Source: an uncultured bacterium
GTDB lineage: Bacteria; Patescibacteriota; Microgenomatia; Levybacterales; UBA12049
NCBI GenBank assembly: GCA_963826535.1
Contig: CAWGXL010000010.1
Location: 298,814 to 362,813, forward strand
Direction: 5' to 3'
Length of the DNA: 64,000 bases
Part shown: one piece after another, positions 31,776-60,459 of the stretch
Position numbering within the stretch: the first letter of the stretch is position 1
How the letters are laid out: every line of letters begins with the position of its first letter
Program-made: the position numbers and the translations under genes
The notes under the pieces: generated by a model
What the model saw: only the letters and a program-made list of their open reading frames with translations
Databases searched by the model: none
What the model was told of the DNA's origin: nothing

Positions 31776-32225
31776 ATGAAAATTTATTTTCTTAAAAAAG
31801 TAATTTTTTATATACTTTTCGCTATATGGATTTTCCTTGCCATTTTTAGTCTGTTTTATAATGCCGGAAAAACAATTTCGGAAATGAATGAATGGGCTTA
31901 CTTATCCGATAGCGAAAAAAGGCTTAAAATTTTTGGGGATTTGCATAACTTTTTCATTTTAATAAAAGACAATACAGAAGAAAAGTCTAATATATTTATT
32001 CTTTCTAAAGACATAAAAACTCCTTACCTTAGCATATATTATTTATATCCTCGAACTATTACTACCACAGATGATAAAAGCAAATTCATAAAAACAGCCC
32101 TTGCTCAAAAACATTTATATTTAGCGGTATATAAACAGGTTATTAAACTTGAAAACTATGAAAGGGTCGCTTCTTTTTCCTCGAAAACGAGCTCTGATTT
32201 TGGTTATCTTTATAAAAGAAAATGA
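31776..32225 (+). CDS. Hypothetical membrane-anchored protein
   Basis: 149 aa with an N-terminal TM helix. Confidence 0.4.
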   Translation: MKIYFLKKVIFYILFAIWIFLAIFSLFYNAGKTISEMNEWAYLSDSEKRLKIFGDLHNFFILIKDNTEEKSNIFILSKDIKTPYLSIYYLYPRTITTTDDKSKFIKTALAQKHLYLAVYKQVIKLENYERVASFSSKTSSDFGYLYKRK

Positions 32226-33532
32226 ATATTATTATTACATTGATTACTATTCTATTTATAACAGCCGTTGGTTTTGCCATTATTCGTGGCTTTAATTTAA
32301 TTTCAAATAAGGACAAGTTATTGAGTATTGCTTGCTCATATGGATTAGGCGTAGGTCTAATTTCAATGCAGTTGTATGTCTTTTCACGATTAAACTTCCC
32401 CTGGCACAAAGAACTATTAATTTATCCTTGGCTTATTTTAGTAGGAGTTATTTTATTCAGAAGTAGAAATCGAATAAATTTTAAGCTACCTTTATTTCCA
32501 AAATTCACTAACTTACAAATTTTCTTACTTTGTGGAATATTAGTTGCTTGTAGTTACACCATTTTTGAGGCTTTAATTCGTCCTGTTACAGTTTGGGACG
32601 GATGGGCTATTTGGCTTCTTAAATCTAAGATATTTTTTCTTGATGGCACAATTGATCCTGAAATGCTTAATTATATAAAATCCGACTACCCATTAATAAT
32701 TAGTCTTTTAGGAACATTTATTTATATTATATTAGGTAGGGTAGATGATACCGCAGTACTTATTACATCTACCGCTTTCTATTTAGCTCTAGCATTATTA
32801 TTTTTGTCAGCTGTGAAAAAAAAGTTTGGTTTTACTTATGCACTGTTATTTACGTTTCTCTTAGTTACTACGCAAAATTTTGTCAGACATGGTGGTAGGC
32901 TCGAAGCTGGTCTGGCAGATTTAGCACTGGGATATTATGCTTTTGCCTGTTTCATTTTATTAATAATTTATCTGAAAACAAGTAGTGGAAAACTGTTATT
33001 ATTACTTAATATATTTTTAGGAATTACTACACTCATTAAATTTGAAGGTGTAACAATAACTCTGCTTTTATCATGTTTTATGTTTTATCATATTACTAAA
33101 AATAGACTATATAGTCATTTCATATTTTTTCTTATTTGGTTTATACCCTTTACGGATTGGCAGACATATAAAAAAATTCACCTTGCAAGTGTAAATTATT
33201 TTACCGCTCATAAATTTGAATTTTCTATATCCAAAACACTTAACGTTTTTTCGGGGACATTTAAAGAATTAATAAATGTAAAAAGCTGGAACATGCTTTG
33301 GATAATCTATTTTTATACACTTTTTATTTTTAAAATAACTAAAAATAAAGAGCTTATGATATTAAATACTATAATTCTTTTTCAATTTGCTGTATATATA
33401 ATAATTTACATATTTACCTCTGGTAACTCTCCTGAAAGCTCGATAGAAAGGTTATTAATTCATATTGCGCCTCTCGCTTTATATTCCGTAGCTATATTAT
33501 TTAATAACAATCAACCTGAAAAGTCCCGCTAA
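32222..33532 (+). CDS. Polytopic membrane protein (GT-C-like / O-antigen-polymerase-like)
   Basis: 436 aa, almost entirely hydrophobic helices. Start overlaps the upstream stop by 4 nt. Confidence 0.45.
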   Translation: MNIIITLITILFITAVGFAIIRGFNLISNKDKLLSIACSYGLGVGLISMQLYVFSRLNFPWHKELLIYPWLILVGVILFRSRNRINFKLPLFPKFTNLQIFLLCGILVACSYTIFEALIRPVTVWDGWAIWLLKSKIFFLDGTIDPEMLNYIKSDYPLIISLLGTFIYIILGRVDDTAVLITSTAFYLALALLFLSAVKKKFGFTYALLFTFLLVTTQNFVRHGGRLEAGLADLALGYYAFACFILLIIYLKTSSGKLLLLLNIFLGITTLIKFEGVTITLLLSCFMFYHITKNRLYSHFIFFLIWFIPFTDWQTYKKIHLASVNYFTAHKFEFSISKTLNVFSGTFKELINVKSWNMLWIIYFYTLFIFKITKNKELMILNTIILFQFAVYIIIYIFTSGNSPESSIERLLIHIAPLALYSVAILFNNNQPEKSR

Positions 33533-35369
33533 ATGATTTTAATATTCCTGGAATAGCAAATTTTTTTACAACAATCAGTTTTTTCATCCTCTTATTTTTT
33601 TTATTAAAATTAATATTCCTTTCTATCAATGTCTCTATTTTATCCGCATTTTCATAGTTTTCAACAATAAAGACCTTTTTAGTTTCATTCGTATAAGGCA
33701 ATTTGATATACATGGGATTTTTTAAGTAATAGGACGATGGTTTTATAGCGGATTCAATATAACTGTTTTTTATAATATCCCGCGTATCAATATCATACAC
33801 TTTACAATCAGTATCATTACTATTTTGAATCTTTTTATCAGGTTGGAATATGAGTATCAGATACTTTTTTTTATTTTCGTAAACTGAATAATTACTAAAT
33901 ATCCATTTTGTTACAAGTGGATTTCTTGAAAAATTAGGAATATCATCAAGACTTAAAGCGCTTATTGAATCTATACTCAATATAATATATTTAGGTGGAG
34001 ACCCACTTAGTTTTTCTACCGCTTTTTTCTCAACAATAGAACTGGAGTACTCATAAAATTGTAGAGGAAGTGTATTAAATGTTGTGCTATATATATTAAG
34101 AAGATAACTGTCATAAGGATAAACTAAAACATTCTGTGGATTATCTTTTATAAGAGACTCAAAATATTGAAAATCATACTTCGTAAAAGAATAATCTCCG
34201 GTTAATTTATAAATATCAAAAAATGATATATTTTCTGTAGCCAAAGCAATTGACAATTTAAAATATTTTATCGAGATATTAGAATAATAATTTTCTTTAA
34301 AAGGTATCAATATATAAAAAATCAAAAAAATAAATATAATAATTAATCTTAATTTCTCCCGTAATATAAAATAAAAAAGTATAAATAAAATAATTAGACT
34401 TGGATATATGCCCATAATAATATGATCTTCATCTGGCCTGATAAATGCTGACTTTAATTGAATTAATGCTACTAGAGTTAGAAAAATAAAAGTCTGCTTA
34501 ATATTTTTCTTTATTCGTGTTTTCCTAATTGCATAAATCAATAATAACGTTAGGGCTATAGGAAACAAAAATAAAATAGTACTTCGATTAAATGACAAGG
34601 GTAAATTCATAACATATTGATAATTTTTAATGGTATCAAGCGAATAAACTAAATAATTAAAACTACCACTAATAAGGAAACTAATTATTAATTCAATAAA
34701 TATAATCAATCCAATTTGAATTACACTAATAAAAATTAATTTTCTAAGTAGTCTTTTGTTATTTTTCTCGTGATAAGTAGTATAAATCTTGTATATAATA
34801 AAAAGAACGGATATCATCAAACACGTAACTAAAATATCAAAACTATACATACCAAAAATTGGAGGTAAAATGAAAATTGCTAAGTTTTTCAAAGTAGGCG
34901 TATTTTTTAGAGGATCAAAGCGTAAAAGAAGTAAGCTATAAAAAAAAGTGAGTAGAATTCTAAAAAGAGTATTGCTATCATATGCAATTAGACCTATAAA
35001 AAAAAAGAGGTAACAAGTAAGAATAATTTGCTCATTCCGGTCCTTTGTTATCAATTTAATGATAAAATAAAGTAAAATAACACAAAATACTGTTATAAGA
35101 ATTGGAGCGTAAAGTACGGAAATATATGAACTTTGCCCAAATATTAATGCAGGGATAGCATAAATAAATTGAAACAATGGACCATATGTAAATATAAAAT
35201 CTCGCCCTGCAATATAACCATGTAATAGTCTTTCAACATTATCTGTTTGCCATGAAAAATCAAGAGTATTAGTAAGCAAAATAACATTACTTATTTGGCC
35301 ACCCAGTAATAAAAGTTTTAAAAAAACAGAAAGTGTAATGATAAAGATTAATATAAAGCCGACAATCAT
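33501..35369 (-). CDS. Polytopic membrane protein (GT-C-like)
   Basis: 622 aa. N-terminal half polytopic, C-terminal roughly 250 aa soluble. Confidence 0.45.
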   Translation of the reverse strand: MIVGFILIFIITLSVFLKLLLLGGQISNVILLTNTLDFSWQTDNVERLLHGYIAGRDFIFTYGPLFQFIYAIPALIFGQSSYISVLYAPILITVFCVILLYFIIKLITKDRNEQIILTCYLFFFIGLIAYDSNTLFRILLTFFYSLLLLRFDPLKNTPTLKNLAIFILPPIFGMYSFDILVTCLMISVLFIIYKIYTTYHEKNNKRLLRKLIFISVIQIGLIIFIELIISFLISGSFNYLVYSLDTIKNYQYVMNLPLSFNRSTILFLFPIALTLLLIYAIRKTRIKKNIKQTFIFLTLVALIQLKSAFIRPDEDHIIMGIYPSLIILFILFYFILREKLRLIIIFIFLIFYILIPFKENYYSNISIKYFKLSIALATENISFFDIYKLTGDYSFTKYDFQYFESLIKDNPQNVLVYPYDSYLLNIYSTTFNTLPLQFYEYSSSIVEKKAVEKLSGSPPKYIILSIDSISALSLDDIPNFSRNPLVTKWIFSNYSVYENKKKYLILIFQPDKKIQNSNDTDCKVYDIDTRDIIKNSYIESAIKPSSYYLKNPMYIKLPYTNETKKVFIVENYENADKIETLIERNINFNKKNKRMKKLIVVKKFAIPGILKSFSGTFQVDCY

Positions 35370-47209: not shown

Positions 47210-48523
47210 ATGAGTAAAAAGGATCTAACTGAAATTATATATAAATCAATGTTATCAATGGCAACAGAGGAGGGAATTAATGCCTCAGGAAAAGAAGAAA
47301 TCTTTGGTTGCATTTTTGGTCGTGATAGTTTTATAACCATCCTAAAACTTCTAAAGGTCGTAGCCAATAAAGACGCTCAAAACACAATTGATGTTTCCCC
47401 GTTAAAAGAGATGTCGAAAAGAGCGCTAACCACCTTAATTAGCCTGCAAGGAAGAGAAACTAACCTCGAAAGCGGCGAAGAACCAGGTAAATTTATCCAT
47501 GAGTACCGCAAAGACAAATACGAACGTCTCGTAAATCGGTCTGTTCGTCCATGGTTTTTATACCCGGATAAAATTCTGCGCAATTATGATTCTCTTGATT
47601 CCACCCCTTTGGGTCTTATCGCGATCTATAAGTTTTGGCATACGACCGGAGACGATGCTTTTCTTATTAAATCACTACCATCAATTGAAGCAGGATTAAA
47701 CTGGATAATTACTTATGGAGATAGGGATAAAGACCAGCTTCTCGAGTATGAATTTCCAAAAAATCGCATTCATGGTGGCTTACAAGTCCAGTCATGGACC
47801 GATTCTAAGGAATCCTTACTTAGCTTAGATGGTACTTTCCCAATGTATCCAATTGCCCCCGTTGAAGTTCAGGGATACGCGTGGTTAGCTCTTAAATTAT
47901 GGTCTGATTTCTATAATGATCCATCTCATAAATATACCGGGTCTGAAAATTTCTCTCGCAAATTGAGTAAATATGCAAATCAGATGAAAAAAAAATTTAA
48001 CGAGTGTTTCATATTCGAATCAGAACGATTAAACTATCCCTCGCAGGCATTAGACGGGCAAAAAAAACAAATTCAAACAGTCACAGGTAATCCACTTCTA
48101 CTTCTATGGGCAACTTATGAGAACCAGGGACAACCGGAATCAATTATATACAATGAATACATCCCTCACTTAGTAGAACGGGTATTCAAAGGCGACATGT
48201 TTGATATAGACGCCGGTATTAGGACTATGAGCGCAATGGCTTCCACTTATATCGAAGGCCAAAATTCCTATCACAACGGAAGTTTCTGGCCAAAACTCAA
48301 TGGCCTAAGCCATGAAGGATTAAGTAATTGGGGATATATCAAGGAAGCTAATCTATTGCATAATGCAACTTTAAGACCCATAGAATTCTTCGGTTCTGCA
48401 ATCGAAGTATATGTAAAATCTGTCTCAGGTCAATACCTTCCATATCGTAATGAAAGTGGCCGGGAAGGCTGCCGTCAACAAGCCTGGTCCGCCGCCGCCG
48501 CCCTCGATCTCCTCACCTTATAA
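47210..48523 (+). CDS. (alpha/alpha)6-barrel glycoside hydrolase, GH15 / amylo-alpha-1,6-glucosidase-like
   Basis: IFGCIFGRDSFITILKLL resembles the xWGRD/WxRD motif of GH15 and GDE_C. 437 aa. The family call is tentative. Confidence 0.55.
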   Translation: MSKKDLTEIIYKSMLSMATEEGINASGKEEIFGCIFGRDSFITILKLLKVVANKDAQNTIDVSPLKEMSKRALTTLISLQGRETNLESGEEPGKFIHEYRKDKYERLVNRSVRPWFLYPDKILRNYDSLDSTPLGLIAIYKFWHTTGDDAFLIKSLPSIEAGLNWIITYGDRDKDQLLEYEFPKNRIHGGLQVQSWTDSKESLLSLDGTFPMYPIAPVEVQGYAWLALKLWSDFYNDPSHKYTGSENFSRKLSKYANQMKKKFNECFIFESERLNYPSQALDGQKKQIQTVTGNPLLLLWATYENQGQPESIIYNEYIPHLVERVFKGDMFDIDAGIRTMSAMASTYIEGQNSYHNGSFWPKLNGLSHEGLSNWGYIKEANLLHNATLRPIEFFGSAIEVYVKSVSGQYLPYRNESGREGCRQQAWSAAAALDLLTL

Positions 48524-48715: not shown

Positions 48716-50161
48716 ATGGCAGAAAAAGAAACAAGAGGGCAAGGTAATCAAGAAGTAGCCGAAAATAAAGTACCAACTGCAGCTTTCTCAGAGCGGAAAA
48801 TTTTTATTGCTCAAGGAAAAGGAGCCGAACGGTTCGCTGAAAGAATGAGAGCAACTGATCCTGATGAATTACAGCGATTACTAGAGCAAAGAGAAAAATA
48901 TGAACCACCGAAACTAATTGATGCAGTGCGGGACGGATTTCGCCGGGTAAGTCGGGATCTTATAGGGCGAGAAGACACTTTGAACCAGACTTTTTTGGCA
49001 CTGCTTACCCGCGAACATCAGCTTATTTATAGCAAAGCAGGCACAGCGAAAACTTTGTTGGCTTCATCGGTATTTAATCAATTCGATAATGCAAGAGTAT
49101 TTTCTATTCAGTTTACAAAAGGAACCCCAGAAGAGGCTGTAGTAGGCGGAGTGGATTTAACTGAATTAAAAAATGGAAGGGTAAAACATAATACTAGAGG
49201 AACAATTGTAGATGCCAGACTAGCCTTTTTGGATGAACTATTTGACGCAAATGATGTGACGCTTCGGTCTATTCTCGGAATCCTTAACGAGAGGTGGTTT
49301 AAAAAGGGAAGTCAAGAAGAAAGAGCATTAATGCATACAGCTATAGCCGCGACTAATTATATCCGCTCTACAGATGTAACTGAGGCAGTAATAGATCGTT
49401 TTGCTTTTAGATCTTTCATAATCCCCAATCAAAATGCATATGATTTATTACGTATAGATAAGGCATATGCAGAATCAGTCGGTAAAGTCCGACAACCGAA
49501 TAAAAAAATTCCATTTGATTATATTGATTACCTGGCTGATATAGTTGAAGGAGAAATTGAAGGGAGAGAGATTAAGTCTCCACCCCATGTTCTATTTTTA
49601 AAAAATGAAATCATAAGAGAGTATCTTGATTTAATAAATACTGACAGAAAGGCAAATGATAAACCTGAACTATACTTAAGTCCAAGGACTATTGCGAAAG
49701 CTCGGGATGTATTGAATGCATCCGCATTGCTCCATAACCGTCAAGAGACGACTATAGAAGATCTAAATGCATTGAAATATATGATCTGTACACTAGGAAG
49801 TCCTGATGAAGATCAAGTGAAGGTATTTGAAAACGCAAAAAGGAATGTTAAAGGATCTGTAAACAGACATGATCTTGAAACTGTTGATACTTTAATAAAT
49901 ACAAATGATGTGCTTGAACAAATTATTGAAGCAAAAGAAACCGGAATACCACTGGATCTTAGACTTCTGGATAGAATAAAACTTTTTCTCGGAATAACAT
50001 CACTGTCGGAATTAACTTTTTCACAAATAGTCCAGGTTGTAAATAGGGCAAGACCATCGAATCCGAGAGTTGCAGAGATTCAAAAAGGGATAGCTTCACG
50101 CATGGCTATTGAAGCCCAGCGCTTTGCATCAACAGGCACTAATAATCCTAATCTTTTTTAA
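48716..50161 (+). CDS. MoxR/AAA_5-like AAA+ ATPase with N- and C-terminal extensions
   Basis: LIGREDTLNQTFLALLTREHQLIYSKAGTAKTLLASSVF (P-loop variant of GvPGtAKT). Walker B RLAFLDELFDAN. 481 aa, versus about 300 for canonical MoxR. Confidence 0.6.
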   Translation: MAEKETRGQGNQEVAENKVPTAAFSERKIFIAQGKGAERFAERMRATDPDELQRLLEQREKYEPPKLIDAVRDGFRRVSRDLIGREDTLNQTFLALLTREHQLIYSKAGTAKTLLASSVFNQFDNARVFSIQFTKGTPEEAVVGGVDLTELKNGRVKHNTRGTIVDARLAFLDELFDANDVTLRSILGILNERWFKKGSQEERALMHTAIAATNYIRSTDVTEAVIDRFAFRSFIIPNQNAYDLLRIDKAYAESVGKVRQPNKKIPFDYIDYLADIVEGEIEGREIKSPPHVLFLKNEIIREYLDLINTDRKANDKPELYLSPRTIAKARDVLNASALLHNRQETTIEDLNALKYMICTLGSPDEDQVKVFENAKRNVKGSVNRHDLETVDTLINTNDVLEQIIEAKETGIPLDLRLLDRIKLFLGITSLSELTFSQIVQVVNRARPSNPRVAEIQKGIASRMAIEAQRFASTGTNNPNLF

Positions 50162-50177
50162 TAGATAGCTTACTATT

Positions 50178-51815
50178 ATGAGCCATGAGAAAGCCGCATA
50201 TGATAAATCAAATGTTATTCAAACTCCTGAAAAACCAATAGATTCTCCCCTAAGGCAATATATCACTTCATTCGGTATAGATCCGATCAAGGAGCTTTTT
50301 CCGCAAGATATTGTAGTCTTTTCTGCAGCAAAAAAACTTGAGAGATTTATCGATGATATAACGATCAAGACAGCCAGAAAACGAGCTCCTGAACAAAAAA
50401 CAATCAAAGTTGAAAGATTGGTGGAGGAACAGATACAGCATACTTCATATATAGAAGGTGAAGAAATTTCAAGAACGCCTGCAGACTCTATGGATGTCGG
50501 GCAAATTCAGAATCCAACTGACTTACCGGAGATTTTACCGGCACAGTGGGTAGAAGCAGAGGTCGCGCCTGACTACTTTGTAAAGAAGCTTTTGGAGAAA
50601 CGATTATTAAAAAGAGTTTGGATTGAAAAAACACGAAAACCTGTAATTTCATTTGAGACCGTACAAAAAAAGAAAATGGTTGAAGAGCCCGCTCCGCCTG
50701 AGGATGAAAAACGGTTTGCCTATGTATTGCTGGATAAATCAGGATCAATGAATCGAGGCGGCAAGCAAATTGCCGGAAAATCGTTAGCTCTTGCTTTTCT
50801 TCGTAAAGGCAAAATAGAGCGGTCTGAGTTGTATTTTCGAGCATTCAATTATATTCCGGAAGAAATGCATGAAGGAAAAACAGATGAAGGATTTAAAAAA
50901 TTGGCTTTAAAAATCCTACGAACAGATAATGACGGTGATACAGATATTCAACTTGCTCTTGAAAAAGCAGTAGAAGATATTAATTCGGGCGGAAAGTTTG
51001 CATATGCAGATATTTTATTAATTACCGACGGGCTTTCCAGACTTGAAAATAATCCTTTAGGTAAGGTAAAACTTCATACCGTCAGATTGGCACAATCGGA
51101 TAAGGACTTATTTGAATCTGAAGAAACTCAATTAAAAAAATTGAAAGCATGGAGTAAAAATTATAAATTGGTAGACCCATCCGAGTTCCAGGACGAACAT
51201 ACAAAACCAGAAGAAGAAAAAGAATTGGAGATTGAAGTACTAAAATCTCTACCTGACCGATTTTCCAAGCCAAAAAGCCTAAGTGAACTAAAAAAACTTA
51301 TGCAATCGAGAGGCCATATCGAGGACGCACTTCAATATGGCCAATCAGTTAAGGGTAGCTCAGCTTTAACTTCAGAACAGTTAATTGATCTTGACGATAT
51401 CATCTCCCAGCTTAATGATTTGAGAGATTCATCCGCAATGCAAAAACATATTGAGGAATACGAGCAACAGCAAAAAATAAAGGAAAGTAATGAAGCCAAG
51501 AAGAAAAGACGATTGGAACGCATACGTAAAAAACAAGAAGCAGAAACAGAACAAATTCTTAAGCAATTAGAGGAATTAACAGAGAAAATCCCCAATGTAG
51601 AAATTCCTTCTGAGCCGGTTAGTCCCCGCTCAAATTCGTCTACAACTGTTCATGAATCACCTGAAGAATTATTAAATAAATTAAAACAATTGACTAACAC
51701 AGAGTCAAGCGTGGATTATCCGGAGGAGACAAAGACTGCATCGAATAACCCAAATCAAAAATCTAATATAATTCAAACAATTGCAAATTGGATCAAAAAG
51801 AGATTTGGAAGATAA
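50178..51815 (+). CDS. von Willebrand factor A (VWA) domain protein, partner of the MoxR-like ATPase
   Basis: MIDAS YVLLDKSGSMNRGGK...ILLITDGLS. Long Lys/Glu-rich coiled-coil C-terminus. Confidence 0.65.
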   Translation: MSHEKAAYDKSNVIQTPEKPIDSPLRQYITSFGIDPIKELFPQDIVVFSAAKKLERFIDDITIKTARKRAPEQKTIKVERLVEEQIQHTSYIEGEEISRTPADSMDVGQIQNPTDLPEILPAQWVEAEVAPDYFVKKLLEKRLLKRVWIEKTRKPVISFETVQKKKMVEEPAPPEDEKRFAYVLLDKSGSMNRGGKQIAGKSLALAFLRKGKIERSELYFRAFNYIPEEMHEGKTDEGFKKLALKILRTDNDGDTDIQLALEKAVEDINSGGKFAYADILLITDGLSRLENNPLGKVKLHTVRLAQSDKDLFESEETQLKKLKAWSKNYKLVDPSEFQDEHTKPEEEKELEIEVLKSLPDRFSKPKSLSELKKLMQSRGHIEDALQYGQSVKGSSALTSEQLIDLDDIISQLNDLRDSSAMQKHIEEYEQQQKIKESNEAKKKRRLERIRKKQEAETEQILKQLEELTEKIPNVEIPSEPVSPRSNSSTTVHESPEELLNKLKQLTNTESSVDYPEETKTASNNPNQKSNIIQTIANWIKKRFGR

Positions 51816-51851: not shown

Positions 51852-52523
51852 CTACTCTTTTATCATATACCCAAACCCTCTAACCGAATGCAGAAGTTGC
51901 TTAGCATAACCTGTATCAACTTTCTTTCTAAGATATCCCATATAAACATCAACAACTCGTGTTTCAACATCTGTTGAGTAGAGCCAGATTCGCGAAAGTA
52001 TCATTTCCCGTGTAAGAATTCTACCTTTATTACTCATTAAGTATTGTAGAAGCTTATATTCCTGAGGTGTAAGCTGGATCAACTTACCAAGTCGTTTTAC
52101 TTCAAGAGTTTTACTATTTAGCTCCAAGTCCGCTATTTTTAGAACCGCATCATTATTACCTTGCTTTCGCAGTCTTGCTTTAATTCTTGCCAGGAATTCA
52201 TCCGCCACAAAAGGTTTAGTGATATAGTCATCTGCGCCAAAATTCAACCCTTTTACAATATCTGTTACCGCGTCCTTAGCTGTAAGGACAATAATTGGCA
52301 GATCTTTATGTTTTTTCCTTACTTCCTGGCAAACCGTCTCTCCGCTCATCGTCGGTAATCCCAAATCCAACACCATGAGATCAGGTACAGTTCTTTGAAA
52401 ATAATCTAGTGCGGCGATCCCGTCACCGGCAGTATGTACAGCATATCCATTATCCAAAAGTAGTTCTTTGAGATATTTTTGCAATCCGCGATCATCCTCA
52501 ACAACAAGAATCGTATAATTCAT
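51852..52523 (-). CDS. OmpR-family response regulator (REC + winged helix)
   Basis: ILVVEDDRGLQKYL...DLMVLDLGLPTMSGE...IIVLTAKD. C-terminal trans_reg_C domain. Confidence 0.9.
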   Translation of the reverse strand: MNYTILVVEDDRGLQKYLKELLLDNGYAVHTAGDGIAALDYFQRTVPDLMVLDLGLPTMSGETVCQEVRKKHKDLPIIVLTAKDAVTDIVKGLNFGADDYITKPFVADEFLARIKARLRKQGNNDAVLKIADLELNSKTLEVKRLGKLIQLTPQEYKLLQYLMSNKGRILTREMILSRIWLYSTDVETRVVDVYMGYLRKKVDTGYAKQLLHSVRGFGYMIKE

Positions 52524-52615
52524 ATTCGGATAATGGAATTATAGCAAGTGAAAGCAAGTAGAGCAATAGAATAAGTGAATTCTATTGCAAGAATATTCTT
52601 ATCCGGCTTTCACAA

Positions 52616-52650
52616 TTCTTACATGATTCTGCTTGTATTTCTTACATGAG
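52616..52650. promoter_or_regulatory. Direct repeats TTCTTACATGA(T/G), one at 52616-52627 and one at 52639-52650 (starts 23 bp apart), in the divergent promoter region
   Basis: 11/12-identical direct repeat next to TTGACA at 52651-52656. This is OmpR-box-like geometry between the RR gene and the GH18/GH19 gene. Confidence 0.4.
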
Positions 52651-52669
52651 CTTGACAGAGCTGTGAATT

Positions 52670-54196
52670 GTGTTAAACTTTTGCCATCCTCTATTTATGA
52701 TTTTTTTTCTGCCCAAAAGAAAATTAAAGGTAAAAATTTCCAATTATCTCCATGCAATTTATAAAAAAAGCCGAAAGCGTCCCTTTGAATTCAGCTGGAC
52801 TTATATTACCTGCTCCTTAAGCGTCATTTGCTTACTCCTTATTTTTTCGTATAATCCCGTTACCACTGCACAATTCTTTCTATCATTTATACAACAGACT
52901 CAAAATAAACCTGTCGAAAAAACATTTAGTTTTATTCCCGGATCAGCACCAAATAAATTTGATAATATAGTTTTACAAAACCTAACACTTTTATCCTTCT
53001 ACGATTTACCTTTTAACACTGACGGCTCGCTTAATACAGAAGTAACGGGCTATGAGTCATTCTATAGCGAAAGAGCAAATTTACTTTTTCAATCAGCTAA
53101 AGAAAAAGGCACAAAAGTTCATGCGACTCTCACTCAAACCTATAACGACGACATTTATGAATTTCTCAATAGCCAAAAAGCGCAGGATAAATTATATGAA
53201 CAAGCAGCTCAGGCGGTACGTGACACAAATATTGATGGAATTACAATAAATGTAGAGTTTGCAGGAGACGCAAACTCAGAATACAAAAACAAGTTTAGCA
53301 ATTTTGTTGCCAAATTTACTGAATACATGCACAACAATATTCCTGGTTCAACCGTAGCAATCGCTCTGCCAAGCAATATACAAAAAAACAGTATTTATGA
53401 TATTAAAGAACTAGCCTCAGCTTCTGATTATACCCTGATAATAGCATATGATTTTGCCGTTCCGGAATCCCAAAATACAGGACTCAGGTCCCCTGTTTTT
53501 GGATTTAATAGTGTTGATTATCAAAAAATTCTTGTAAAAGCTACAACCAATTTTCAGGACGTTGTTCCTTTGAATAAACTTGTCATGGAACGTGCGTGGT
53601 ATGGCAATGGCGATAATTACCATCTTTATTCCTCTAATAATACTCCCTTGTATAATGAGACCACAAATACTCTAAATGCAACTTTATCAACCAACACTAT
53701 TGAGAGACTAATCTCGGATGTGCCGCTTGATGCCCAAAGCGCTGCAAGAAAAAATTTGCCTTTTATTCTTAATGCACTAAAAAATGAAAATATACTCAAT
53801 GCCAATGTTCTCGCTTATGCTTTAGCGACAATTCAACACGAAACAGCAAACACATTTGAACCGATAGATGAATATAAAGGACGCAAAAGTGCGCGCAGAC
53901 TTGGCTATGAAGGTGGAACAAACTATTTCGGTCGCGGTTTTATTCAGTTAACACATCTTCGCAATTACGAAAAAATGGGAAATCGGATCGGAATCGGCAA
54001 CAAACTGGTCAAAAACCCAAACCTTGCATCCAGTTCTGACATTGCTGCAAGAATTTTAGCAGCTTACTTTAAAGACTTTGGAATTGCCGAGCTTGCAACA
54101 AATGGTAATTTTATAGACGCGCGTACACTGATAAACCCTGACTACTATGGAGAAATAATCGCCCAAATTGCGTACGTATATCTAAACGCGATATAG
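52670..54196 (+). CDS. Membrane-anchored dual glycoside hydrolase: variant GH18 domain + GH19 (lysozyme/chitinase-like) domain
   Basis: GH18-like DGITINVEF (DxxDxDxE with D to T/N) and LIIAYDFAVPESQNTGLRSPVF (MxYD...tG..apL). GH19-like ATIQHETANTFEP and FGRGFIQLTHLRNYEKMG (compare FGRGPIQLSWNYNY). N-terminal TM anchor. The start codon is uncertain. Confidence 0.6.
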   Translation: MLNFCHPLFMIFFLPKRKLKVKISNYLHAIYKKSRKRPFEFSWTYITCSLSVICLLLIFSYNPVTTAQFFLSFIQQTQNKPVEKTFSFIPGSAPNKFDNIVLQNLTLLSFYDLPFNTDGSLNTEVTGYESFYSERANLLFQSAKEKGTKVHATLTQTYNDDIYEFLNSQKAQDKLYEQAAQAVRDTNIDGITINVEFAGDANSEYKNKFSNFVAKFTEYMHNNIPGSTVAIALPSNIQKNSIYDIKELASASDYTLIIAYDFAVPESQNTGLRSPVFGFNSVDYQKILVKATTNFQDVVPLNKLVMERAWYGNGDNYHLYSSNNTPLYNETTNTLNATLSTNTIERLISDVPLDAQSAARKNLPFILNALKNENILNANVLAYALATIQHETANTFEPIDEYKGRKSARRLGYEGGTNYFGRGFIQLTHLRNYEKMGNRIGIGNKLVKNPNLASSSDIAARILAAYFKDFGIAELATNGNFIDARTLINPDYYGEIIAQIAYVYLNAI

Positions 54197-54217: not shown

Positions 54218-55297
54218 ATGTTAAACAAATATCAGGAATTACCAAAATTCATCAAAGTATTTTTCATGACATTTACTTCAATGTTTCTCATAGTTGCTCT
54301 ACAACATTTAGGGTTCAGATTACCACTATTGCAACATTTTAAAATGCAGATCAATCTGGTAAGTCCTCTACCGGAAAAAAACTATTTTCTGGACACCGTA
54401 CTTCCCCTGCTTGAACAAAAAAAAATGCAATTTGAATTAAAAAATGATACATCTCTTATTCCCCAATCATATGCGGCTGGTGAATTAGATGCCGACACAG
54501 CCAATGCGTATACGGTTATCGATCTAGATACCGGACTGATTTTATTCGAAAAAAATGGTGAGAAAAGGTTTGCTGTTGCTTCATTGACTAAAATTATGAC
54601 TGCTTTAACCGCTCTAGACCTTGCTTCGCCCAATGAAATATTCACTATTGAAAAACGCGCAACAAGAGCTATACCCTCAGTTATTGGCGTAACAGAAGGC
54701 GAAAAATTAACGCTTACTGAATTACTTAACGGCGCACTACTAATGTCAGGCAATGATGCCGCCGAGGCGATTCGGGATGGAATTGATGCAAAATACGGTG
54801 AGCTTGTTTTTATTAGAGCAATGAATGAAAAAGCAAAATTTTTAGGCCTTGTAAATTCCAACTTTAGTAATCCGCAAGGATTCGATTATGGAAATAATCA
54901 CAGCAGTGCGCATGATATGGCTAGACTCACACAATATGCCTTGACCCAATATCCTCTTATAAATAGCATAGTAAAACAGGATTATCTGACAATCCCTTCA
55001 AATGCCAATCACAAAGAATTTGAGATGAAAAACTGGAATGGATTGATTGGAGTTTATCCGGGTGCTCAAGGGGTAAAAATCGGATTTACCGAATCTGCCG
55101 GAAAAACTACAATAGTAGTCGCGAATAGAAACGGGAAAAATATCTTAGTCGTCCTCCTCGGAGCTCCCGGCATTTTAGAAAGAGATCTCTGGGCAGCCCA
55201 ACTTCTCGACCTTGGCTTCCAAAAGTCAATTGGCCTTGAACCGGTAAATATTACCGAAGAACAACTACAAATAAAATACGCAAGCTGGTATAATTAA
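54218..55297 (+). CDS. D-alanyl-D-alanine carboxypeptidase (S11, PBP5/6-like)
   Basis: SxxK ASLTKIM. SxN MSGNDAAEAI. KTG KIGFTESAGK. Confidence 0.85.
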   Translation: MLNKYQELPKFIKVFFMTFTSMFLIVALQHLGFRLPLLQHFKMQINLVSPLPEKNYFLDTVLPLLEQKKMQFELKNDTSLIPQSYAAGELDADTANAYTVIDLDTGLILFEKNGEKRFAVASLTKIMTALTALDLASPNEIFTIEKRATRAIPSVIGVTEGEKLTLTELLNGALLMSGNDAAEAIRDGIDAKYGELVFIRAMNEKAKFLGLVNSNFSNPQGFDYGNNHSSAHDMARLTQYALTQYPLINSIVKQDYLTIPSNANHKEFEMKNWNGLIGVYPGAQGVKIGFTESAGKTTIVVANRNGKNILVVLLGAPGILERDLWAAQLLDLGFQKSIGLEPVNITEEQLQIKYASWYN

Positions 55298-55306
55298 CTC
55301 CTCTAA

Positions 55307-55864
55307 ATGATTAAACAAAATAAACAAAAAGCCCTCGATAAAATTGCCAGGGAAATTAATAACTGCGAAACCTGTAAACTAGGAAAAAGCGGCAAAGCAG
55401 TTCCGGGTGAAGGTAATCCTGATGCAAACATTATTTTTATAGGAGAGGCGCCTGGTAGAAAAGAAGCCGAGTCAGGACGACCCTTTATCGGCAGATCCGG
55501 ACAATTACTCCGCTCAATGATTAGAGACTTGGGTTTGGATGATGTAAAAGATGTCTTTATCACAAGTCCTGTAAAATATTTACCTGACCGTGGCACTCCG
55601 ACCCCAACTGACATTAAACACGGAAGAATCCATCTCATGCAACAGCTAGAATTAATTAATCCTAAATTAATTGTCCTACTTGGAGGCGTTGCGACACGAG
55701 GTATTCTGGAAGAAATTATACCGGTTAAGAAAATGCATGGACAAATTATTGATCGCAATCAAAAAAAATATTTTATCACCCTCCACCCTGCTGCCGCCCT
55801 TCGCTTCCCTCCCCTTAAAATATTAATAAAAGAGGACTTCATAAAACTGAAAAAATTAGTATAA
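55307..55864 (+). CDS. Uracil-DNA glycosylase family 4
   Basis: CETCKLGKSGKAVPGEGNPDANIIFIGEAPGRKE...GRSGQLL. Confidence 0.85.
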   Translation: MIKQNKQKALDKIAREINNCETCKLGKSGKAVPGEGNPDANIIFIGEAPGRKEAESGRPFIGRSGQLLRSMIRDLGLDDVKDVFITSPVKYLPDRGTPTPTDIKHGRIHLMQQLELINPKLIVLLGGVATRGILEEIIPVKKMHGQIIDRNQKKYFITLHPAAALRFPPLKILIKEDFIKLKKLV

Positions 55865-55961: not shown

Positions 55962-57782
55962 GTGAAAAAAACACACGCTCTCTTCAAAAACTCCAATAGA
56001 GAGTTATTCCTTATTCTAATAGTGATATTGGGTTTTGCAATCTTTATTCCGATTTTTACATATATCTTTTTCGCACAAGATCTAAAAGACAAAAACAGTA
56101 TAATGAATAAGAATGACACAGGTGTTATTCTATTTGATAGCCAAAATCATCCCTTTTTTACTTTATATCAGGCTAAATACATAAAATTTATTCCTTTTTC
56201 GCAAATTCCAAAAACTATGCAGTTTGCAGTTATTGCATCGGAAGACAAAGACTTTTATAACCATTCAGGTTTTTCTCTCAAGTCTATTTTAAGAGCTATA
56301 TCCATGAACTTAACAACCAAAGACCAATTATACGGCGGATCCACCATAACACAACAGCTTGTTAAGAATGCGTTATTAAATTCCAATAAAAATATTACCA
56401 GGAAATTACAGGAAGTCGTTCTTGCACTTGAAATAGAAAGAAAATACAGTAAAAGCGAAATCCTGGAAATGTATTTAAATTCAGTATATTTTGGAGAAGG
56501 ATCATTCGGGGTAGAAAATGCCGCAAAATTTTATTTCAATAAAAATACAACAGCACTAAATCTCAACGAGGAAGCTTTTTTGGCAGCTATCCTTCCTTCT
56601 CCTTCTTCGCTCTCACCTTTCAGGGGAAATGTAGTAAATGTAAAAAAACTCAAAAACATAGTTCTAAAAAAAATGTATGAACAAAAATACATTACAAAAT
56701 TACAAATGCACCGGGCAATTAACGAGCCATTGGTGTTCCATACCGGCAACAAAGATATAAATGTAATTGCTCCCCATTTTGCGTTAATGATACGGGATGA
56801 ATTAGTAAAGAATTACGGTGAAGAATTTATTTCTCGCTCAGGTTTCCGGGTAAAAACTACACTAAATCCCGACTGGCAGGAAATAACAGAAAAAGCAGTT
56901 TCCGACCAAGTTACAAATCTGCAAAGAAATAATGTAAGTAACGGTGCGGCCGTAGTATTAGACCCAAGAACCGGTGAAATTAAAGCACTTGTAGGTAGCA
57001 CTAATTGGTACGATGATAAATTCGGAAAAATGAATCTTGCTACTGCCCCCCGCTCCATGGGTTCGTCATTCAAGCCTATTGTATATTCGGCAGCACTTGA
57101 ACTGGGCCTCATAACGCCTGAAACTATTTTGCGTGACGTACCGACAACCTTTGAAGGGGGATATAAGCCGAACAATTATGACAGAAAATTCAGAGGAAAC
57201 GTATCAGTCCGTCGCGCTCTTGCTAATTCCTTAAATGTTCCTTCAGTTGAAGTAATGCAAAGAGTTGGAATTCATAATGCTCTGGAAATGGTTAAAAGAT
57301 TAGGTATAACCTCATTAAAAACCCCGTCTGATTATGGATTGTCTCTTGTTTTAGGTGCAGGAGAAGTAAGTCTTTTGGAAATGACCGGAGTTTACGCGGT
57401 ACTAGCTAATCAAGGAGTAAAAAACACACCTATAACTATTCTAGAGATTTATAACAAACAAGAAAAGAAAATATATACATACGTTCCCGCTCGAAAAAAA
57501 GTATTAAACCCGGAAGTTACCACAATAATCACCTCTATACTTTCAGACAATAAAGCCAGAGCAGAAGTATTTGGCAATCTCTTAACGGTCTCACAATCTG
57601 CGGCAGTCAAAACAGGAACAGCGGAAGATTGGCGCGATTCAATAACAATAGGTTATACTCCTACCCTTTCCATTGGAGTATGGATAGGAAATAATGATAA
57701 TACACCTATGGACGGTATAGCTGGCTCACTTGGAGCTGCTCCTATTTGGAAAACTCTTATTCAAAAACTATCTTCCTCGTAA
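55962..57782 (+). CDS. Bifunctional class A penicillin-binding protein (GT51 transglycosylase + transpeptidase)
   Basis: GT51 motifs EDKDFYNHSGF and GGSTITQQLVKN. Transpeptidase SxxK SMGSSFKP. N-terminal TM anchor. Confidence 0.9.
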   Translation: MKKTHALFKNSNRELFLILIVILGFAIFIPIFTYIFFAQDLKDKNSIMNKNDTGVILFDSQNHPFFTLYQAKYIKFIPFSQIPKTMQFAVIASEDKDFYNHSGFSLKSILRAISMNLTTKDQLYGGSTITQQLVKNALLNSNKNITRKLQEVVLALEIERKYSKSEILEMYLNSVYFGEGSFGVENAAKFYFNKNTTALNLNEEAFLAAILPSPSSLSPFRGNVVNVKKLKNIVLKKMYEQKYITKLQMHRAINEPLVFHTGNKDINVIAPHFALMIRDELVKNYGEEFISRSGFRVKTTLNPDWQEITEKAVSDQVTNLQRNNVSNGAAVVLDPRTGEIKALVGSTNWYDDKFGKMNLATAPRSMGSSFKPIVYSAALELGLITPETILRDVPTTFEGGYKPNNYDRKFRGNVSVRRALANSLNVPSVEVMQRVGIHNALEMVKRLGITSLKTPSDYGLSLVLGAGEVSLLEMTGVYAVLANQGVKNTPITILEIYNKQEKKIYTYVPARKKVLNPEVTTIITSILSDNKARAEVFGNLLTVSQSAAVKTGTAEDWRDSITIGYTPTLSIGVWIGNNDNTPMDGIAGSLGAAPIWKTLIQKLSSS

Positions 57783-59840: not shown

Positions 59841-60459
59841 ATGAGAAAATTATTAAGCATTTGTCTAGTTATAATTATTATATTCGGTGGCATTTTACTT
59901 GGAGTTACGATTGCTCAAAAAGCCAAACACAGAGAGATAATTAAAGACAAACCTCAAACCCTCTCAACTCAAACCAAAGTTACACCAACCGCGGTTGCAA
60001 CTTTAACAATATTACCCGAAATACCTAGTCAACTTTCAATCCCATCTATTAATGTAAATGCGGACATAGAGCAGGTCGGTCTTGATGCACAAGGAAAAAT
60101 GGACGTACCCAAAACACATATCACTGTAGGTTGGTACTCATTGGGATTTAGACCGGGGCAGAAAGGGAATGCTGTGCTCGCTGGACATTTAGACCATCCC
60201 AGCGGGTCACCGGCAGTATTTTGGAATTTGCCTAAACTCAAAGCCGGTGACAAAATAATTATCACTGATTCAAATAGAAACTCTTACACATTTTCAGTCA
60301 CACATACGGAAAAATATCCACACGAACCAATTTCCCTTAATCGAGGTTTTTGGCAACTCGGATCAGGCTGGATTGAATCTGATCACTTGTGAAGGCTCCT
60401 GGAATAGCGTAACTGAAAACTATTCTCATAGGACAGTAGTCTATACCAAAATGGATTAA
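59841..60459 (+). CDS. Sortase (class D/E-like transpeptidase), frameshifted in a T5 run
   Basis: TM anchor, then LAGHLDHP (catalytic His). The ORF stops at 60392. The +1 frame continues GNSDQAGLNLITCEGSWNSVTENYSHRTVVYTKMD (TLxTC Cys and conserved Arg) to 60459. Dropping one T of the TTTTT near 60345 restores the frame. Confidence 0.65.

Follow-up and report, generated by a model that had tools for sequence, protein, structure and literature searches.

The window analysed here is a stretch of 64,000 nucleotides (nt) from an uncultured bacterium of the Levybacterales in the Patescibacteriota (assembly GCA_963826535.1, contig CAWGXL010000010.1, positions 298,814 to 362,813 of the forward strand). 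At 52670–54196 its plus strand carries one uninterrupted reading frame of 508 amino acids (aa) with a GTG start, in which a domain derived from glycoside hydrolase family 18 (GH18) is followed by a GH19 domain. An initial annotation, made from the letters alone, had described one gene with two domains, a description to be given up if profile searches failed for either family or if the frame proved to be two genes. A single frame was found, both Pfam families scored above cut-off and all the peptide strings quoted in that annotation were present in the translation, which contains LIIAYDFAVPE, LVMERAWYGNG, HETANTFEPIDE (nt 53837–53872) and GRGFIQLTHLRNY (nt 53930–53968). The true start is probably the ATG at 52697, giving a protein of 499 aa, since the gene call of the database protein P0001 (499 aa, 100% identical to the window protein) and the homologues begin there and since a promoter-like site overlaps the GTG. 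The full-length AlphaFold2 (AF2) model was confident, with a predicted local distance difference test score (pLDDT) of 92 and a predicted template modelling score (pTM) of 0.82. The GC content of the gene resembles that of its surroundings. A scan of the protein against NCBIfam gave no meaningful match, and no chitin-binding module, LysM or YceG domain was matched in it by Pfam, YceG being absent even at E ≤ 10.

The fusion is conserved within one branch of the ultra-small candidate phyla radiation (CPR) bacteria. A homologue search of a collection of 5.8 billion proteins, in which 8000 candidates were scored, returned at least 204 homologues (clusters at 90% identity) of about 500 aa, mostly from Microgenomates (Daviesbacteria, Levybacteria); the idea that the GH18 and GH19 combination is rare was thus not borne out in this lineage. 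The family statistics given below use the best 120 homologues, which are 427–579 aa long, cover 82–100% of the query at 41–67% identity and carry both Pfam families in 104 cases. Few homologues are named, and these belong to Candidatus Levybacteria, Daviesbacteria and Saccharimonadales, the Daviesbacteria being members of the Microgenomates group of the Patescibacteria. Clustered at 50% identity, the full-length family falls into about 12 clusters. In GTDB contigs, at one genome per species, 26 full-length loci were found under the names Daviesbacteria, Levyibacteriota, 'Patescibacteria group', Saccharimonadales and, for several metagenome-assembled genomes (MAGs), 'uncultured Gammaproteobacteria'.

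The C-terminal domain (53699–54196, plus strand), which is followed directly by the stop codon, was assigned to the endolysin type of GH19, with a lysozyme-like fold, by Pfam, a PDB profile search and Foldseek. PF00182 matched aa 409–461 at 31.4 bits against a cut-off of 25.5, as expected from the GH19 half of the initial annotation. Its wording, 'lysozyme/chitinase-like', held for the endolysin (muramidase) branch and not for the chitinase branch in light of the structural matches. The three best hits of the domain profile in the PDB were the SPN1S endolysin 4ok7 (6.6e-13), PWe2 9ms7 (5e-8) and 9eoi (1e-7), with plant and bacterial chitinases ranking lower in the same search at 4e-7 or weaker. 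Foldseek with an AlphaFold model of the GH19 domain on its own (pLDDT 85) gave 9ms7, 4ok7, 9eoi and the KTN6 gp46 structure 8p8e, with template modelling (TM) scores of 0.77, 0.76, 0.73 and 0.66, respectively. All four are GH19 endolysins (ELYS) of lysozyme-like alpha-helical fold, and no chitinase was found in the top 50 matches. Sequence identity of the GH19 half to the solved endolysin structures is only 17–19%. The 9eoi structure is that of PaGH19Lys, a proven muramidase that cuts the MurNAc-GlcNAc bond and is inactive on chitin, chitohexaose and chitosan.

The catalytic residues were located by reference to the GH19 Engineering Database (GH19ED), in which the shared catalytic core consists of a proton-donor Glu, a base Glu and a water-holding Ser/Thr, with endolysin positions E49, E58, T130, G123-R124-G125, Q128 and N134-Y135. 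The segment HETANTFEPIDE (53837–53872, plus strand) contains the proposed proton donor Glu391 and base Glu401, their roles following the GH19ED table, and GRGFIQLTHLRNY (53930–53968, plus strand) contains the remainder of the core, namely G-R-G, Q426, the water-holding T428 and N432-Y433, all invariant or nearly so. E391, E401, Q426 and T428 are invariant in 120/120 homologues with zero changes on the family tree. E391 aligns with the H-E of SPN1S (E49) and E401 with the second Glu of the PWe2 endolysin. After a 15-residue tag offset of the 4ok7 chain was taken into account, the mapping to ELYS numbering read E391 = E49, E401 = E58, G421-R422-G423 = 123–125, Q426 = Q128, T428 = T130 and N432-Y433 = 134–135. 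Alignment to GH19 references had been put forward in the initial annotation as a check, and the Glu, Glu and Thr were found present and in register with the ELYS positions. The fused protein thus shares with the endolysins the core H-E...E...G-R-G-x-x-Q-x-T...N-Y, including the two Glu and the Thr that holds the water. Fused family and endolysins differ in Glu-Glu spacing (10 residues in the fused family vs 9 in endolysins) and in a family-specific invariant loop, SARRLGYEGG, beside the GH19 catalytic residues. The pLDDT of this loop is 52–72 in the isolated-domain model and 86–94 in the full-length model, a rise that fits packing of the loop against the GH18 remnant but gives only a weak hint of it, as the depth of the alignment was also not the same for both models. 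The GH19 half is the conserved core of the family, with a mean pairwise identity of 68.5% between members, against 41% in the GH18 half. From the sequence and structure comparisons the GH19 half is placed in the endolysin (muramidase) branch and cleavage of the MurNAc-GlcNAc bond is predicted.

The GH18-derived domain (52919–53623, plus strand) was found by Pfam, by DSSP assignment of the AF2 model and by comparison with relatives to consist of beta1 to beta7 only, the last beta/alpha unit being missing. PF00704 scored 54.8 bits against a cut-off of 29.6 over aa 139–345, in agreement with the variant GH18 N-half recognised at the outset, and the match spans positions 57–258 of the 317 in the Pfam model only. 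In the predicted structure seven barrel strands are followed by coil and then by the GH19 helices; where a complete (beta/alpha)8 barrel would carry its beta8 Trp strand, the GVGIWAL segment is replaced by the GH19 module. The two are joined by an Asn/Thr-rich linker (53624–53698, plus strand) of lower model confidence (pLDDT 61–87). The motifs of the fused family are FxFIPG, DGxTx[D/N/A]xE, A[Y/S/D][D/N]FxVPE and E[R/T]AWYGNG, followed by linker and GH19, and the beta1 PYW, the YYGY and the GVGIWAL beta8 strand with its Trp are all absent. The variation is accordingly not limited to two residues of the catalytic motif, as first described, but extends to a missing beta/alpha unit and to relaxed catalytic positions.

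The variant catalytic motif itself, DGITINVE (aa 189–196; 53234–53257, plus strand), comprises D189, T192, N194 and E196 in the family alignment. The initial reading of this motif with its Glu retained was confirmed, except that the Thr is not a deviation in this family: it is the norm, and the second position is never Asp. E196, the catalytic acid/base Glu, is kept in 118/120 homologues. The helper Asp two residues before it is Asn194 in the window protein, and across the family this position is Asp in 95, Asn in 12 and Ala in 10 of the 120. On a neighbour-joining tree at least 15 switches between Asp, Asn and Ala are counted at this position, and the nearest relatives of the query have Asn, Ala or Asp. 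Because the position keeps changing, Asn194 is taken as one state of a relaxed column and not as a fixed adaptation. The MxYD of beta6 is represented by Y260-D261 in the window protein, Tyr260 being kept in just 56/120 family members. The sequence alignment and the model describe the GH18 half as a truncated, decaying barrel, with barrel closure and the domain interface resting on the predicted model. In GH85 enzymes the place of the stabilising carboxylate is taken by a conserved Asn, and Asn194 was also considered as a lineage-defining, GH85-like adaptation; this candidate was downgraded on account of the Ala in close relatives and the repeated flips.

An exhaustive search also recovered stand-alone GH18 relatives, which match positions 3–317 of the 317 in the Pfam GH18 model at 107–150 bits and show the motifs FGFxPYW (beta1), DGxNxDFEY (beta4), MAYDF (beta6), LGVPYYGY (beta7) and GVGIWAL (beta8). 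Four of them (P0141, P0168, P0212 and P0249) resemble the fused protein, at 20–28% identity, in having the N-terminal anchor and strands beta1 to beta7. Unlike the fused protein, the stand-alone proteins have a complete barrel match, conserved catalytic motifs (helper Asp in 26/26, beta6 Tyr in 21/21) and no GH19 module. In all four placed stand-alone loci a gene for an S11 D-Ala-D-Ala carboxypeptidase lies directly downstream, overlapping or within 22 nt, and in two of the four a penicillin-binding protein 1A (PBP1A) gene is adjacent. As complete stand-alone GH18 genes occupy the same slot as the fused gene, the GH18-S11(-PBP1A) cluster is taken to predate the fusion.

Among solved structures the best Foldseek matches of the GH18 half were SleL (4s3j, 3.4e-9), 4wiw and YdhD (3cz8), ranging from 3e-9 to 8e-9, which together with YaaH make up a group of GH18 enzymes acting on spore-cortex peptidoglycan in Firmicutes. 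Ordinary chitinases trail closely at 1e-8 and weaker, so this ranking is suggestive only. The SleL group resembles the fused protein in lacking the middle Asp of the motif (DGVVIDFE in 4wiw), and SleL itself is an N-acetylglucosaminidase of the spore cortex. The members of that group differ in having complete barrels, LysM repeats (two at the N-terminus in SleL/YaaH) and sporulation-specific expression, whereas the fused protein is membrane-anchored, has a truncated barrel in which the helper Asp varies, and lacks both LysM and a sporulation context. A second comparison is offered by inactive GH18 chitinase-like lectins, which according to one account (PMC3662789) have degenerate catalytic motifs and are retained as glycan-binding domains. 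The GH18-type barrel and degenerate motif are shared with the fused protein, but the lectins keep a complete barrel.

At the N-terminus, the probable start is followed by a basic cytoplasmic segment (MIFFLPKRKLKVK...KKSRKRPFE; 52697–52789, plus strand), delimited from P0001 and the homologue starts, and by a single transmembrane signal-anchor (FSWTYITCSLSVICLLLIF; 52790–52846, plus strand) with a Kyte-Doolittle value of 1.97 and a predicted N-in/C-out orientation. The anchor is a hydrophobic 19-mer (aa 41–59 in the window protein) with an equivalent in 111/120 homologues, the other nine being shorter, N-truncated gene calls. Mean flanking charge is +2.6 before the anchor vs +0.75 after it, a positive-inside bias. 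Given the 19-mer and this charge distribution, the family members are predicted to be type-II anchored, with the GH18 and GH19 domains both on the extracytoplasmic side. The membrane anchor of the initial annotation is therefore real and a family trait.

The genes around the fused gene were evaluated by Pfam. The S11 D-Ala-D-Ala carboxypeptidase gene (54218–55297, plus strand; PF00768, 147.5 bits) begins 21 nt downstream and is followed by a gene for a uracil-DNA glycosylase (UDG) of the family-4 type (55307–55864, plus strand) and by the gene for the class A PBP, PBP1A, with Transgly and Transpeptidase domains (55962–57782, plus strand). This agrees with the dacA-like and PBP1A neighbours noted initially. 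Upstream lies a divergent gene for an OmpR-family response regulator (51852–52523, minus strand). Fused loci were sampled on 29 distinct contigs, 28 of which include downstream DNA. The S11 gene is directly downstream in 28/28, with boundaries elsewhere ranging from a 20-nt overlap to a 4-nt gap, and PBP1A follows in 19/28. No UDG match was found in the other homologous loci, the insertion being seen in the window genome only. A homologue of the OmpR-type regulator, 68–86% identical, lies within 5 kb upstream in 11/29 loci. Gene order links the fused gene with the synthesis of the cell's own wall. No secretion-system, toxin-immunity, holin, spanin or phage structural genes were found near the gene in the Pfam-scanned neighbourhood. 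Farther upstream, a GDE_C/MGH1-like glycoside hydrolase gene (437 aa) lies at 47210–48523, and six other genomes have a homologue of it, 52–69% identical, upstream of their cluster (loci L004, L006, L010, L014, L018 and L028), so the synteny reaches beyond wall genes.

In the divergent intergenic region a promoter-like site, TTGACA and a TG-extended TAAACT separated by 16 nt (52652–52679, plus strand; a consensus match only), overlaps the GTG at 52670. The region as a whole shows no excess of such sites (18 vs 21.8 expected), so this single intergenic one is treated as a hint. Its -35-like hexamer is abutted by a perfect tandem direct repeat, two copies of TTCTTACATGA at 23-nt spacing (52616–52649, plus strand), and the pair is unique in the window. 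In the 330-nt regions upstream of 28 homologous genes the core TTCTTAC has 26 copies on the gene strand, against an expectation of 1.6 ± 1.2 and a maximum of 6 in 500 first-order Markov simulations. In two loci it is fused to TTGACA, and the loci with the element include L002, L003, L004, L007, L018 and L024. Single TTTCTTAC copies are not enriched across the window (7 vs 4.6 expected), and hence only the upstream tandem arrangement and the enrichment across genomes are considered meaningful. By these counts the tandem repeat looks like a conserved candidate operator, and it is possible that the adjacent OmpR-type regulator acts on it and controls the cluster, a link that is inferred. The same region holds a perfect 10-nt inverted repeat, GCAATAGAAT-N6-ATTCTATTGC (52563–52588), nearer the response-regulator gene.

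The company kept by the GH19 module elsewhere was also investigated. Its closest non-CPR relatives, at 30–39% identity, are mostly cyanobacterial proteins of 255–320 aa, five of which have an N-terminal PG_binding_1 domain (four above the Pfam cut-off, one just below). An exhaustive hidden Markov model search detected the module in many other architectures at 150–340 bits, and those scanned combined it with LysM and NlpC/P60, with Peptidase_M23 and LysM (twice) and with the LPD38 polyvalent-protein domain. In GH19ED, endolysin-type domains are accompanied solely by LysM and PG_binding_1, and chitin-binding carbohydrate-binding modules occur solely with the chitinase type. As in the ELYS group, the partners of the module are peptidoglycan-binding and not chitin-binding, and these domain associations point to peptidoglycan as the probable target. 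The endolysin-type module also stands at the C-terminus of P0136 (1475 aa), P0142 (1210 aa), P0144, P0157, P0158 (1986 aa) and P0166, very large proteins with almost no other Pfam match apart from LPD38 in one of them; these may be virion-associated or offensive lysins. In a Levyibacteriota locus (L032, 4665–5519) a 285-aa protein consists of a GH19-type module alone behind an anchor-like N-terminus and a Gln/Ala-rich linker, so that an unfused form of the module occurs in this phylum as well.

On balance we consider it probable, though far from certain, that the fused protein is a glycan hydrolase of the cell's own peptidoglycan in which the GH19 domain cuts and the GH18 remnant has been repurposed, with the substrate, the bond specificity, the loss or reduction of GH18 activity and the physiological role all inferred. 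The role in the organism's own peptidoglycan was one of the options suggested initially and is the best supported, given the S11 synteny in every fused locus and the frequent adjacency of PBP1A. The protein would act as a type-II anchored, extracytoplasmic hydrolase on own-wall glycan strands, co-expressed with the DD-carboxypeptidase and the class A PBP. Its GH19 module would be an inverting N-acetylmuramidase in which Glu391 serves as the acid, Glu401 as the base and Thr428 holds the water. The GH18 domain would descend from a complete, membrane-anchored GH18 enzyme already present in the same genomic slot, and replacement of its last beta/alpha unit by the GH19 module would have left the substrate-assisted machinery under relaxed constraint. 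For the remnant, with Asn194 and no beta8 Trp, a glycan-binding or scaffolding function with weak or altered activity appears most likely, and in this it would be comparable to the LysM and PG_binding_1 domains found beside this GH19 module elsewhere. Strands would be cut, trimmed or released during wall growth and cell separation.

In mode of working the fused protein would resemble MltG/MpgA of the YceG family. Those proteins cleave glycan strands outside the cytoplasm with a domain of the lysozyme superfamily, are held in the membrane by a single N-terminal anchor and are functionally associated with class A PBPs. Having no YceG domain, the fused protein does not belong to that family, and a role as strand terminase would be proposed from this analogy only. 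Compared with the phage lysins of the ELYS group, the fused protein is chromosomal, membrane-anchored and encoded in a peptidoglycan-synthesis cluster. In place of the phage or prophage lysis cassette that houses such endolysins, housekeeping neighbours and synteny across genomes were found.

Several observations weigh against the reading as an own-wall hydrolase with a repurposed GH18 remnant. E196 is retained in nearly all homologues, Asp at position 194 is kept in 79% and three residues (E266, E307 and W310), absent from the stand-alone relatives and located where strand ends face the active site, do not vary within the fused family; on these grounds the remnant may have kept catalytic activity, perhaps with an altered mechanism. 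Loss of the catalytic Glu, which here is nearly invariant, is usual in classical non-catalytic GH18 lectins. The relaxation of the catalytic positions relative to the stand-alone proteins was evaluated by Fisher tests that ignore kinship (helper Asp, p = 0.008; beta6 Tyr, p = 1e-6). As to the target, synteny shows a link with wall synthesis and not the direction of action, and a tethered enzyme at the contact between epibiont and host might still reach the host wall.

A catalytic remnant would make the protein bifunctional, an active SleL-like N-acetylglucosaminidase, with Asn194 in place of Asp as in GH85, next to a GH19 muramidase, so that both beta-1,4 bonds of the glycan would be cut. We regard this as unlikely, yet as a possibility of some weight. 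It draws on the retention of Glu196 and, in 95/120, of Asp194, on Tyr260-Asp261 in the window protein, on the clustering of conserved GH18 residues at strand ends, on the GH85 precedent and on the peptidoglycan-active best folds, SleL being an N-acetylglucosaminidase. However, the protein lacks the beta8 Trp strand and the beta1 Tyr/Trp, which form the lining of the -1 subsite in complete relatives, and Ala, which is unable to act like Asn, is found at position 194 in 10/120 homologues including close relatives of the query. Tyr260 has moreover been lost in 53% of the members and, as the pairwise identities reflect, the pace of evolution is much higher in the GH18 half than in the GH19 half. 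A separate, speculative and rather unlikely reading is that the remnant and GH19 together form a composite, membrane-tethered processor of nascent strands working with PBP1A and the DD-carboxypeptidase, either as an MltG replacement in Microgenomates or with a second, non-canonical active site, and controlled by the response regulator via the ATTTCTTAC tandem operator. The open seven-stranded barrel, with Glu196, E266, E307 and W310, would then pack against the SARRLGYEGG loop beside the GH19 cleft.

The initial annotation had also raised a host wall or a chitin-like polymer as target, and both found little support in view of the anchor, the S11/PBP1A linkage and the endolysin-type GH19. That an episymbiotic CPR cell uses the enzyme offensively, breaching or grazing host bacterial peptidoglycan at the contact site, seems improbable. 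The GH19 module has the character of a lytic phage enzyme and ends proteins of 1000–1986 aa, one of them with LPD38, that could themselves be offensive, and CPR bacteria are widely inferred to be symbionts. These points are countered by the invariant, operon-like linkage to the cell's own DD-carboxypeptidase, with PBP1A in addition, by a single N-terminal anchor that would keep the enzyme at its own membrane beneath its own wall, by the ancestral complete GH18 in the same housekeeping slot and by the lack of secretion-system or toxin-immunity genes nearby. A genuine chitinase or chitodextrinase gaining GlcNAc from environmental chitin is very improbable. Both Pfam families are best known as chitinases, source databases call the homologues 'predicted chitinase', metabolic surveys of CPR bacteria score both families under chitin degradation and some lysozyme-fold enzymes are promiscuous. 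Despite such labels the protein is probably not a chitinase: it is membrane-tethered and not secreted, has no chitin-binding module in the Pfam scan, has a truncated GH18 half and groups through GH19 with endolysins, the nearest characterised structure (9eoi) being inactive on chitin, and its context is peptidoglycan synthesis and not sugar uptake or catabolism. Next to no credence is given to a prophage lysis-cassette remnant or an artefact joining two genes. The closeness of the GH19 module to phage endolysins would be in its favour, but the single frame is full-length in 120/120 best homologues and on 29 independent contigs, the neighbours are housekeeping genes with no holin, spanin or phage structural gene, the GC content is that of the surroundings and the full-length model is confident. 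With a conserved full-length family and conserved synteny, both the remnant and the artefact can be considered effectively refuted.

The GH18 and GH19 domains are each of a known kind, and their fusion was not found described. Literature searches returned no description of a GH18-GH19 fusion or a comparable CPR wall hydrolase, and a GH19 partner is not mentioned in the retrieved passages of a large survey of GH18 domain architectures. A 2025 study states that every GH19 peptidoglycan hydrolase characterised to date is phage-derived. If the preferred reading of the fused protein as an own-wall hydrolase is right, the family would represent a cellular, housekeeping use of this module in a lineage with barely known wall biology. 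The loci would in addition preserve an evolutionary sequence, from a complete anchored GH18 with a DD-carboxypeptidase, through replacement of the last unit by GH19, to decay or repurposing of the old site. Counts of GH18 and GH19 genes, from which chitin degradation is credited to CPR bacteria in metagenomics, would inflate the inference of chitin degradation if such genes encode wall-remodelling enzymes. The upstream repeat would provide a testable handle on the regulation of CPR cell-wall genes.

Other features of the window were noted in passing. A pair of adjacent genes for a MoxR-type AAA+ ATPase (bpMoxR domain) and a vWA-domain protein occupies 48716–51815, upstream of the regulator gene. 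A sortase gene at 59841–60392 fits a Gram-positive-type envelope. Between 30000 and 36000 the GC content is low (27–29% vs about 37%) over a cluster of glycosyltransferase and sugar epimerase/dehydratase genes, a stretch that also holds two large reading frames without Pfam match (32222–33532, plus strand, and 33501–35369, minus strand). An Rfam scan of the window identified a tRNA only. Among the homologous loci, those titled 'uncultured Gammaproteobacteria bacterium' (L006, L011, L012, L014, L015, L017, L018, L023–L026 and L029–L031) are MAGs with the CPR-type cluster and proteins 42–58% identical to the window protein, and these assemblies seem to carry a wrong or placeholder organism label at NCBI.

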